Source of the DNA: Candidatus Jordarchaeales archaeon
GTDB taxonomy: Archaea; Asgardarchaeota; Jordiarchaeia; Jordiarchaeales; Freyrarchaeaceae
Assembly (NCBI GenBank): GCA_038889235.1
Contig: JAWAHN010000001.1
Span: 524,499-556,498, forward strand
Direction of reading: 5' to 3'
Length of the DNA: 32,000 nt
This document shows, in pieces, positions 24,357-29,801 of the stretch (positions are counted from its first letter, which is position 1; every line of letters starts with the position of its first letter). The position numbers and the translations under genes are program-made. The notes below the pieces were generated by a model, which was given only the letters and a program-made list of their open reading frames with translations, ran no database searches and had not been told where the DNA came from.

Positions 24357-25609
24357 CTACCACCGCCTCTCCTTCTCATTGAACTCCCTGCTATACTTTC
24401 GGAGTTCCTCCATTGACCAGACCCAGGAGTGTTCTTTCTCGACGTCCACGAACACTAACCTGTCCTCACATGAGAAGCATGGGTCAATTGACGCTAACGC
24501 CACAGGGATGTCTGCGATGTAGCAGCCTTTTAAGAGCTCTGCGACTGAGAGTATGTTCGCCATGGTCGGCGTCCTAATCTTGACCCTGTAAGGTTTATCG
24601 GTGCCATTGCTCTTCACATAGTAAACTAGCTCACCTCTCTGGGCTTCAAACCTAGAGAAGGCTTCACCCTCAGCCACACGCCGGATGAGCTTCTCGGGCA
24701 TGATGTTCCCGTCTTTAGGCATATGGTCGAGGCACCATCGGATGATCTTAATGCTTTCGAGTGTTTCGAGCACGCGCACAACAGCCCTACCGAAAGAGTC
24801 GCAAGAGTCCCACGTTACAACGTTAAACTCTGCCTCATCGTATTTCAAGTGCGGATCGTCTTTACGTACATCTCGCTCAACCCCAGCTGCACGAATGGTA
24901 GGGCCAACGGCTCCCAACTTTACGCCAGTCACAGGATCGAGAATGCCTACATCTTCAGTCCTCTTCCTGATAGTAGTCTCTTCAAGACACAATTTCTCGT
25001 AGTATTTCGTCCTCTCTTCGAGGTAGTCGAGACCTTTCCTGATTTTGTCAGCGAGCTCAGGAGTTATGTCCCTTCTAACACCGCCGATGATATTCATAGC
25101 ATAGTTGACCCTATTACCTGAAATAGCCTCAAGCAGATCCATAACAACTTCTCTATCACGCCACACGTACATGAACAGTGTCTCAAAACCAATTTCTAAT
25201 CCTAGAGCGCCAAGCCACAGCAGGTGGCTGTGGATACGCTCAAGCTCGCTCACTATGGTCCTGATAAACTTAGCTTTCTCACTAACCTCTATTCCGCCAG
25301 CCTCTTCAACAGCCAGCGAAAAGCAAGTCGTATTCGCGCTCCCCAAGGCGACGGGCACACATAGAACTTACGACATTTGCCTTAGAGGAGTTGCGCGTTC
25401 GAACATATACCGCAAACCCTTTCTACCAAGAATATTCCTTGTATGTAGGTCCTGTTTTCCAGCGCCTTTTCTATCCCCCTGTGAACATACCCGATCCTAG
25501 GTTTCACGTCTACGACTGTTTCTCCCTCAACAAATATCTGGAACAGTTCAGGCTCGTGTAGAGCAGGGTGTTGTGGGCCAATGGGTACTATTACGGGTGC
25601 CGTTTTAAT
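24357..25609 (-). CDS. Group 4 [NiFe]-hydrogenase large subunit (NuoD/EchE-like), two exons: 25609-25392 and 25332-24357, 397 aa after splicing
   Basis: Exon 1 reads PIGPQHPALHEP...GYVHRGIEK...ERVCGICSNA (L1 motif). Exon 2 reads TTCF...ELERIHSHL...DPCFSCEDR (L2 motif). Probable ATT start at 25609 after GGAGGTG. Confidence 0.88.
25333..25391 (-). other. 59-nt bulge-helix-bulge (tRNA-type) intron in the hydrogenase large-subunit gene
   Basis: mRNA reads CGCG-CA^A-CUCCUCUAAGGC...GCCUUGGGGAG-CGCG-AA^U. Standard cuts join CA+U into the His codon and restore the frame. Confidence 0.85.
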
Positions 25610-28672: not shown

Positions 28673-29729
28673 GTGAAGGAGTTAGAATACAGGATGACTA
28701 AGGTTGTAAAGCTTCACGGTTGAGCTTGTAAGCTCCCGCAGGCAGATTTGAAGAAGCTTCTAGAGAAGGCGGGGGTCACAACTCCGAGCAACATTCTAAG
28801 TGGGCCCGACGAGGATGCAGCCGTTATACGTGTCCGGGATGACATGGTGCTCGTGAAAACGATAGACTTCGTTACGCCGAGCGTCGACGAGGGATATGTT
28901 CAGGGGAAGATTGCAGCCGCTAACGCGACAAGCGACGTGTACAACACAGCCACGAGGCGGGCTGTGTGCATAAGCGAAGGGTGCAACCGAGATAGTTGGC
29001 TTCTTGGCGGTCTTAGGCGTGCCCACAGACATGCCTGTGGAAATAGCAGTAGATATTCTTCGGGGGATCAAAGACTACTTAAGTGAGGTCGGAGGGGCAT
29101 TGGTTGGCGGGCACACGATATTTAACCCGTGGCCGCTGTCTGGGGGCGAAGTTACTGCTATAGCCCATCCAAGTCAGATAGTCTACCAGAGAGGTGCTAG
29201 GGCCGGGGATGTGTTGGTTCTCACAAAGCCACTGGGGACCCAGCCGGCAATGGCTGTCTATAGAAGTGTGAAGGAGCCGGAGACGCGCGAACTAGTGCTA
29301 AGCGTGCTTTCAGAGAAAGAGGCGGAGGAATTAGTTAGGAAGGCGATAGGATTCATGACGCAGTCAAACAAACCTGTTGCTGAAGCTATGAGGGAGGTTA
29401 AGCCTAATGCTGCAACCGACGTAACAGGGTTTGGGCTTGTGGGACATGCTGGAAACATGGCTAGGGAGAGCGGGGTTGACGTGGAGATACAATTTTTACC
29501 AGTTATGAGGGGTGCTGTTCAAGTCTCAGAGCTCTTTGGCTACGGGTTAGAAAGAGGGGAAGCTGCGGAGACCTCTGGTGGAATCTTGGCGTCGCTGCCT
29601 AAGGAGAAAGTTGACGAGTTCCTGGGCGAGTTGAAAAAACGCGGAGTTACAGCTTACATCGTTGGTGAGATTAAGCGCGGCGAGGGGAAAGTTACTGTGA
29701 AGCGTGACGTCGAAATGATCGAGGTGTAG
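28673..29729 (+). CDS. selD: Selenophosphate synthetase, a selenoprotein (UGA=Sec at 28721-28723), two exons: 28673-28942 and 28974-29729, 341 aa after splicing
   Basis: VKLHG-U-ACKLP matches archaeal SelD. Also EDAAV, TIDFVTP, GKIAAANATSDVY|AKG, GGHT, LTKPLGT, ATDVTGFGLVGH, ETSGG. Start position (GTG 28673) inferred. Confidence 0.92.
28943..28973 (+). other. 31-nt bulge-helix-bulge intron in selD
   Basis: mRNA reads GUGU-AC^A-ACACAGCC-loop-GGCUGUGU-GCAU-AA^G. Removal restores the frame and SDVYAKG. Confidence 0.78.
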
Positions 29730-29734
29730 ACTTA

Positions 29735-29783
29735 GGTGATGATGGAGGAAGGTAAAGCATGGTTACCCCTTCCTTCCAGAACC
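29735..29783 (+). promoter_or_regulatory. Eukaryote-like SECIS element in the selD 3' UTR
   Basis: AUGA (29739-42), an 11-nt stem strand, AAA (29754-56), a complementary return strand and GA (29779-80), starting 10 nt after the selD stop. Confidence 0.72.
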
Positions 29784-29801
29784 CCCACAGCAGTGGGGCT
29801 T

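Follow-up and report, generated by a model that had tools for sequence, protein, structure and literature searches.

The closest described counterpart of the element analysed here is the cbf5 pre-mRNA of Crenarchaeota, which encodes a pseudouridine synthase and carries a BHB intron, often with a relaxed motif, within its coding sequence (Watanabe 2002; Yoshinari 2006; Yokobori 2009, PMC2738675). Another mRNA with a BHB element, HVO_1309 of Haloferax volcanii, bears it in the 5' UTR (PMC7714728). In the literature that we could search, endonuclease-type introns in archaeal coding sequences comprised only Crenarchaeota cbf5, with the Haloferax 5'-UTR case in addition. The layout of the BHB motif is described in PMC5829648, according to which non-canonical introns are cut only by (alpha-beta)2 and epsilon2 endonucleases, and Asgard EndA is an (alpha-beta)2 enzyme with an L1 (Crenarchaea-specific) loop; the loop-less M. 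kandleri enzyme still cuts the HBh' form (PMC5829648). The broad specificity of EndA has been ascribed to K44, an RNA-recognition residue (PMC3241643). In a preprint of 2026 about the tRNA introns of Asgard archaea, the word 'mRNA' does not occur; it treats protein-coding genes only as neighbours for matching tRNA loci. Asgard archaea are also described as having a Sec-containing SelD with a eukaryote-like SECIS in the 3' UTR (PMC11227280; PMC9723677), and the word 'intron' is absent from both of these papers on Asgard and Jordarchaeia selenoproteins.

Here we analyse selD within a 32,000-nt stretch of DNA (the whole of which we call the window) from a genome of the class Jordarchaeia. This class belongs to the Asgard archaea, the archaeal phylum closest to eukaryotes. 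The selD coding sequence is interrupted by 31 nt at 28943-28973, which we consider highly likely to be an archaeal EndA-type (BHB family) intron. Every related genome retains the insert, with mutations that compensate one another, and it is therefore very probably removed from the mRNA by splicing, with cleavage and ligation predicted at the bonds described below. This makes selD a strong candidate for a second gene family with such an intron, in Asgard archaea.

An insert within the selD coding sequence

The broken selD gene appears as two open reading frame pieces, 28748-29086 and 29004-29729. Exon 1 opens with the ATG at 28694, reads MTKVVKLHG-TGA-ACKLPQ... and ends ...AAANATSDVY at 28942; exon 2 begins AKGATEIVGFLAV at 28974, and its frame reads AKGATEIVGFLAVLGVP... 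up to the stop at 29727-29729. From its first base, the insert consists of an A, a perfect 8-bp stem around an 8-nt loop, and GCAUAA. Pairing of 28937-40 with 28968-71 forms a central helix of G.U, U-A, G-C and U.G, two of the four pairs thus being G.U. A sequence-only reading of this DNA had described a selD gene split over two frames by a 31-nt insert with an 8-bp stem, a GUGU/GCAU helix and the flanking ACA and AAG, and we found the two pieces and every one of these elements in place (Table 1).

Table 1. Coordinates of selD, its predicted intron and the elements of the motif within the window.
Feature	Position	Strand	Description
selD exon 1	28694..28942	+	83 codons, MTKVVKLHGUACKLP...SDVY; NF010705 positions 8-90
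In-frame TGA read as selenocysteine	28721..28723	+	codon 10, HG-U-ACK
Central helix H, 5' strand, GUGU, exon	28937..28940	+	pairs with 28968-28971; invariant in 14 sequences
5' bulge ACA, predicted cut 28942/28943	28941..28943	+	separates H from the intron stem; its 3 columns stay unpaired in RNAalifold
Predicted 31-nt intron	28943..28973	+	removal restores a seamless SelD; orthologous inserts of 30, 31 or 34 nt
Intron stem h', 5' strand ACACAGCC	28944..28951	+	8 bp with 28960-28967; 6 compensatory pairs in relatives
Intron loop ACGAGGCG	28952..28959	+	8 nt; 5-11 nt in relatives, sequence free
Intron stem h', 3' strand GGCUGUGU	28960..28967	+	written GGCTGTGT as partner of ACACAGCC
Central helix H, 3' strand, GCAU, intron	28968..28971	+	GCAU in 13 of 14 sequences, GCAC in 1
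3' cut region AAG, predicted cut 28973/28974	28972..28974	+	without a closing exon-side helix
selD exon 2	28974..29729	+	251 codons plus stop TAG 29727-29729; NF010705 positions 91-345; AIRS and AIRS_C domains

Two profiles of the SelD family place the exons end to end. The NCBIfam equivalog NF010705 matches exon 1 over positions 8-90 and exon 2 over positions 91-345 (88 + 245 bits), and TIGR00476 matches them over positions 3-89 and 90-283 (84 + 153 bits). Removing the 31 nt joins ..SDVY to AKGATE.. without a gap at NF010705 90|91, with no residue lost or added, and gives one reading frame of 334 codons with Sec, whose TGA occupies the Sec/Cys position in the N-terminal loop. In other lineages, homologues that lack the intron have NDVYAKGATD or NDVYAMGA where the exons would join.

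The position of this junction can also be derived from the RNA. In a canonical BHB motif, the cut falls after the second base of each 3-nt bulge, and so lies two bases 3' of either strand of the central helix of 4 bp. Applied here, the rule cuts at UAC|A and AA|G, removes 28943-28973 and joins 28942 to 28974. Of all junctions, only the one given by the cut rule fits both the SelD profile and the homologues, and it is the same in all 14 sequences compared below. It is also unambiguous, because shifting the 31-nt segment by one base in either direction alters the joined sequence. The predicted spliced RNA, ..GUG UAC|GCG AAG.. (junction letters GACGTGTAC|GCGAAGGGT), reads ..V-Y-A-K... The sequence-only reading had arrived at the same cut, after the second bulge nucleotide and giving SDVY|AKG, and the seamless profile match and the NDVYAKGATD homologues bear it out. 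It had also raised an alternative register that would excise 29 nt. We rejected this register, which would leave the reading frame broken and whose additional A:U pair is replaced by A:C in the nine sequences, L003 among them, in which the stem ends in C.

Folded as a single sequence, the selD insert gave z = -1.67, with 17 of 200 shuffles folding equally well. Since this is not significant, the case rests on comparison among relatives. An Rfam search of the 32,000-nt window returned no match.

Distribution and covariation among relatives

We searched 11 Jordarchaeia genomes, representing three genera in two families. All 11 contain selD, and the frame is broken at the same codon wherever a contig reaches the site. 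One of the 11 hits is incomplete and was excluded from the site count; the insert lies at the same codon in 10 of 10 other class genomes with the site covered, and in 4 further contigs from public assemblies. Among 201 Asgard genomes sampled, 88 contain selD, and the 77 such genes outside Jordarchaeia are all open through the site, at ~320-330 codons. The insert is therefore both class-wide and class-specific, occurring in Jordarchaeia selD and in none of the 77 others. Two families with a protein identity of only ~50% have it at one and the same site, which indicates that it is old, and most likely the intron was gained once, in the ancestor of Jordarchaeia. The insert is 31 nt long in the Freyrarchaeaceae genome under study, 34 nt in L003 and 30 nt in the others, with the length variation among orthologues confined to the loop. 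Inserts of 30 nt keep the frame of exon 1, in which they end with TAA or, once, TAG. At the other end of exon 1, selD of family 2 (L007-L012, L029 and L030) has TTA (..YR-L-TKAV..) aligned with the ATG start of the genome under study.

Protein databases hold this gene in pieces. The names under which sources list its close homologues (Jordarchaeia, Jordarchaeaceae, Freyrarchaeum) identify the class. A search with exon 2 of a collection of 5.8 billion proteins found no spliced-form Jordarchaeia SelD, which does not count as evidence against splicing; the Jordarchaeia-like hits (at least 75% identity to a spliced selD) were C-terminal pieces of 191-250 aa only, and the full-length SelD hits were ~50% identical and came from other lineages. 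The cluster containing the C-terminal SelD piece of the genome under study likewise held no spliced form. Its 268-aa member comes from a close strain, P0127 (Logan contig), whose intron reads GCACAA in place of GCAUAA; the TAA is thereby lost, and the C-terminal reading frame is called back through the intron (MRRATCTTQPRGGLCAQ-AKGATE..). Such extension through the intron is an annotation trap. A metagenome scan yielded only copies of sequences already compared and two intron-less distant homologues.

We aligned 14 distinct selD insert sequences and ran RNAalifold on them without structure input. It returned an 8-bp stem that stacks, past three unpaired bases, on a 4-bp helix between exon GUGU and intron GCAU. 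On this structure, 96.7% of cells in the 14 sequences are paired. Changes that compensate on both sides occur in six of the nine stem pairs, and the stem reads ACACAGCC/GGCUGUGU in the genome under study, GCGUAGCC/GGCUACGC in L005 and GUGUAAAUC/GAUUUACAU in family 2. In 500 shuffles the observed covariation score was never reached, and sliding the partner strand by 1-3 columns lowered pairing to 14-59%. The central helix is invariant save for one change of GCAU to GCAC, by which a G.U pair becomes G-C; GCAC also occurs in one further close strain. Invariance of the exon strand says little, because GUGU is fixed by the Val-Tyr codons. In the intron, GCAUAA stays fixed while synonymous sites are near saturation. 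The comparison of selD across sister genomes that the sequence-only reading had called for thus yielded an insert at the same codon, with covariation, throughout the class.

A stable hairpin directly after the last exon-1 codon, spanning a gap that is short and variable in length, could also suit ribosomes that bypass these 30-34 nt as they translate, in the manner of phage T4 gene 60 or mitochondrial 'byp' elements. Bypassing of the gene-60 kind follows rules, namely matching take-off and landing codons and a stop right after take-off. In selD the take-off codon would be UAC or UAU (Tyr) and the gap ends in UAA, CAA or UAG, which leaves no matching landing codon, and the codon after take-off is AAC, AGC, AGU or AAU instead of a stop. 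The GCAU/GUGU pairing and the 3-nt bulge, moreover, would have no role in hopping, yet they are exactly what EndA requires. We regard bypassing as highly improbable.

Set beside the make-up of an EndA-type intron, the insert departs at one point. A 4-bp central helix lies at the exon-intron borders (GUGU/GCAU, paired in 14 of 14 sequences), and a 3-nt 5' bulge (A-Y-A) is closed by an intron-side helix of 8-9 bp. Cuts two bases 3' of the helix strands would yield a functional product, and the genome encodes a relaxed-motif endonuclease and an RNA ligase. A second 3-nt bulge closed by an exon-side helix is what the motif lacks: in an alignment of 154 columns, with ~50 nt of exon on each side, no such helix lies adjacent to the 3' site. 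The 3' cut site therefore falls outside a closed bulge, and the motif is relaxed, not the canonical hBHBh'; by the nomenclature cited in PMC5829648 we read it as the HBh' type. This agrees with the sequence-only reading, which had called the exon-side helix essentially absent and the BHB less canonical. RNAalifold also indicated a possible 4-bp exon-exon pairing of CGAC (28926-28929) with GUUG (28995-28998), with two-sided changes among relatives. Lying 7 nt and 21 nt from the motif, it is too distant to serve as the BHB outer helix, and its two-sided changes may be a phylogenetic artefact.

Selection, the selenocysteine pathway and splicing enzymes

Taken alone, selD of the genome under study looks frameshifted, as would be expected of a pseudogene, of a fault in sequencing or assembly, or of a mobile insertion gained recently. 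The relatives argue otherwise. The same insert is found in 14 distinct sequences from independent assemblies, and at the same site in the two families despite their low protein identity. All 13 spliced reading frames from related genes are intact, with no other stops or frameshifts, and the HGU[AS]CK motif with its Sec codon is kept in all 13. In both exons dN/dS is 0.04-0.14, with dS at ~1 or more even within a genus; by this estimate purifying selection on both exons is strong. The remainder of the Sec pathway is likewise intact, and we consider decay, error or recent insertion extremely improbable.

The sequence-only reading had named as refuting its intron a genome lacking tRNA-Sec/SelB and other selenoproteins, in which selD would be a plausible pseudogene. 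This refutation fails: SelB is represented here by a gene and tRNA-Sec by a candidate. SelB (306 bits, above cut-off) adjoins SepSecS (412 bits) at G000:C1:350598-353269, outside the window, and a PSTK-like kinase at C1:374773-375516 scores 192 bits, below the equivalog cut-off of 290. The tRNA-Sec candidate, with anticodon UCA, lies on the minus strand at G000:C1:336000-336136 (L017:1501-1637), likewise outside the window. Its score is low (27.8 bits) because the alignment needs three inserts: the D arm holds one of ~26 nt, another of ~13 nt follows the anticodon, and the T loop has a third of ~19 nt. The candidate thus resembles a tRNA-Sec gene interrupted by three introns. An earlier candidate at C2:40794-40901 has UAA in the anticodon loop and was set aside as Leu-like, not Sec. 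Directly 3' of the selD stop, at 29736-29785, is a hairpin, GGAGGAAGG ... CCUUCCUUCC, preceded by GUGAUGAUGG, which is a candidate eukaryote-like SECIS; the 104-nt stretch that holds it has a fold z-score of only -1.15.

The most serious rival explanation is a split gene, as both halves would then be conserved. Under this explanation, two polypeptides, an N-terminal one of ~90 aa and a C-terminal one of ~240-250 aa, are independently translated and then associate, and the hairpin is merely intercistronic. Purifying selection on both halves is likewise expected of a split gene, the insert ends in TAA or TAG in the exon-1 frame in 12 of the 14 sequences, and the C-terminal piece figures as a protein in gene calls and databases. 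Such a protein, however, would have no conserved start after the insert: the candidates are a TTG 10 codons in (the genome under study), an ATG at codon 2 (L005) and a GTG at codon 8 (family 2), with none nearby in L004. The tail of the N-terminal piece is not conserved either: most genomes would give it 9 aa, and the genome under study 29 aa in a shifted frame. It is the conserved SD-x-YA-x-G motif that the break interrupts, and no residue is lost or duplicated there. A covarying stem, and an invariant 4-bp helix from which the exact junction follows, would also be superfluous in a spacer. Together, these points make a split gene unlikely.

Splicing of selD, our preferred reading, would call on enzymes that the genome encodes. 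Two genes, at C1:1056137-1056754 and C3:444282-444869, belong to the EndA family. The product of one is closest to the Aeropyrum pernix EndA alpha catalytic subunit (3p1z_B, E = 4e-47); it retains the Tyr/His/Lys triad, and the loop residues that are K44 and R46 in A. pernix are kept as K51 and K53. The other has Ala in place of the catalytic His of M. jannaschii EndA, as expected of a structural beta subunit, its predicted role. We infer that the two proteins form a heterotetrameric (alpha-beta)2 endonuclease. RtcB is also encoded (600 bits).

From these elements we propose the following course. In the pre-mRNA, exon GUGU (28937-40) would pair with intron GCAU (28968-71), and the ACA 3-nt bulge and the 8-bp intron hairpin would form on the inner side. 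The (alpha-beta)2 EndA, with the L1/CSL loop of the enzymes that process relaxed HBh' motifs of this kind, would cleave at UAC|A and AA|G, in each case two bases 3' of a strand of the central helix. The exons would next be ligated by RtcB into ..GUG UAC|GCG AAG.., so that a single SelD selenoprotein of 334 codons could be translated. That the 3' site has no closing helix of the canonical BHB, and that no ligated product has been seen, would also suit a hairpin cut or bound by some other factor, such as another RNase or a regulatory protein, with no religated mRNA. In that case the cell would lack an intact SelD though the Sec pathway needs one, and it would go unexplained why the EndA cut rule matches the junction set by homology; we think this reading very unlikely.

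Further inserts and comparison with known systems

A second insert of the same layout interrupts the [NiFe]-hydrogenase large-subunit gene at 25332-25397 on the minus strand. It has a helix of CGCG with CGCG, CA|A on the 5' side, an 11-bp stem and AA|U on the 3' side, and its removal joins ..CGICSNA to H... In the genome as a whole (2.14 Mb, 95% complete), ARAGORN recognised just 14 tRNA genes and predicted introns in 10 of them; most of its tRNA genes are probably too interrupted for recognition. We also scanned the genome for frame-joining inserts of HBh' shape. Frames were joined by 4.4% of the hairpins that had a full central helix and by 3.7% of those that had none, so the scan was non-discriminating and was dropped; its 'broken frame' criterion had missed selD.

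We lean slightly towards the view that Jordarchaeia routinely depend on EndA/RtcB splicing of mRNA, with a selD intron fixed since the origin of the class, a second one in the hydrogenase gene and, apparently, three inserts in the tRNA-Sec gene. If true, any selenoprotein of these archaea needs splicing at two levels (selD mRNA and tRNA-Sec) in addition to UGA recoding, and splicing efficiency could be a control point for selenium use. A class-wide selD intron with covariation suggests that splicing of protein genes by the tRNA machinery extends beyond one gene. There is also a practical consequence: with Jordarchaeia SelD in databases only as a C-terminal fragment of 191-250 aa, selenoproteome surveys and pathway reconstructions under-annotate SelD.

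The introns of cbf5 and selD are alike in being short, in lying inside an archaeal coding sequence that is broken when unspliced, and in having a relaxed motif (often so in cbf5). Their host lineages are alike in having a splicing endonuclease of hetero-oligomeric make-up, for which a relaxed motif need not lie within a tRNA. The two differ in gene (a selenoprotein in our case), phylum (Asgard, class Jordarchaeia) and insertion site. Moreover, the selD intron is fixed in every class genome examined, whereas cbf5 introns have been repeatedly gained and lost, and splicing of cbf5 has been shown by experiment, whereas that of selD is predicted. With the HBh'/BHL tRNA introns of Crenarchaeota and Asgard archaea (PMC5829648, PMC3241643), the selD intron shares the 4-bp central helix, the 3-nt bulge, the intron-side helix and one disrupted flank, as well as the same set of encoded enzymes, loop lysine included. 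In contrast to those introns, it sits in an mRNA, with no tRNA body to aid recognition or folding, and the exon strand of its helix is constrained by the Val-Tyr codons. HVO_1309 resembles selD in that an mRNA is the substrate of the tRNA splicing endonuclease, as predicted for selD; its element, however, lies in an untranslated leader and leaves the frame uninterrupted, whereas the selD insert breaks it. Lastly, the Asgard SelD proteins described previously (PMC11227280; PMC9723677) belong to the same family, have a UGA at the catalytic position and go with the same archaeal/eukaryotic-type Sec machinery, but, compared with them, the Jordarchaeia selD would need an extra RNA-processing step.
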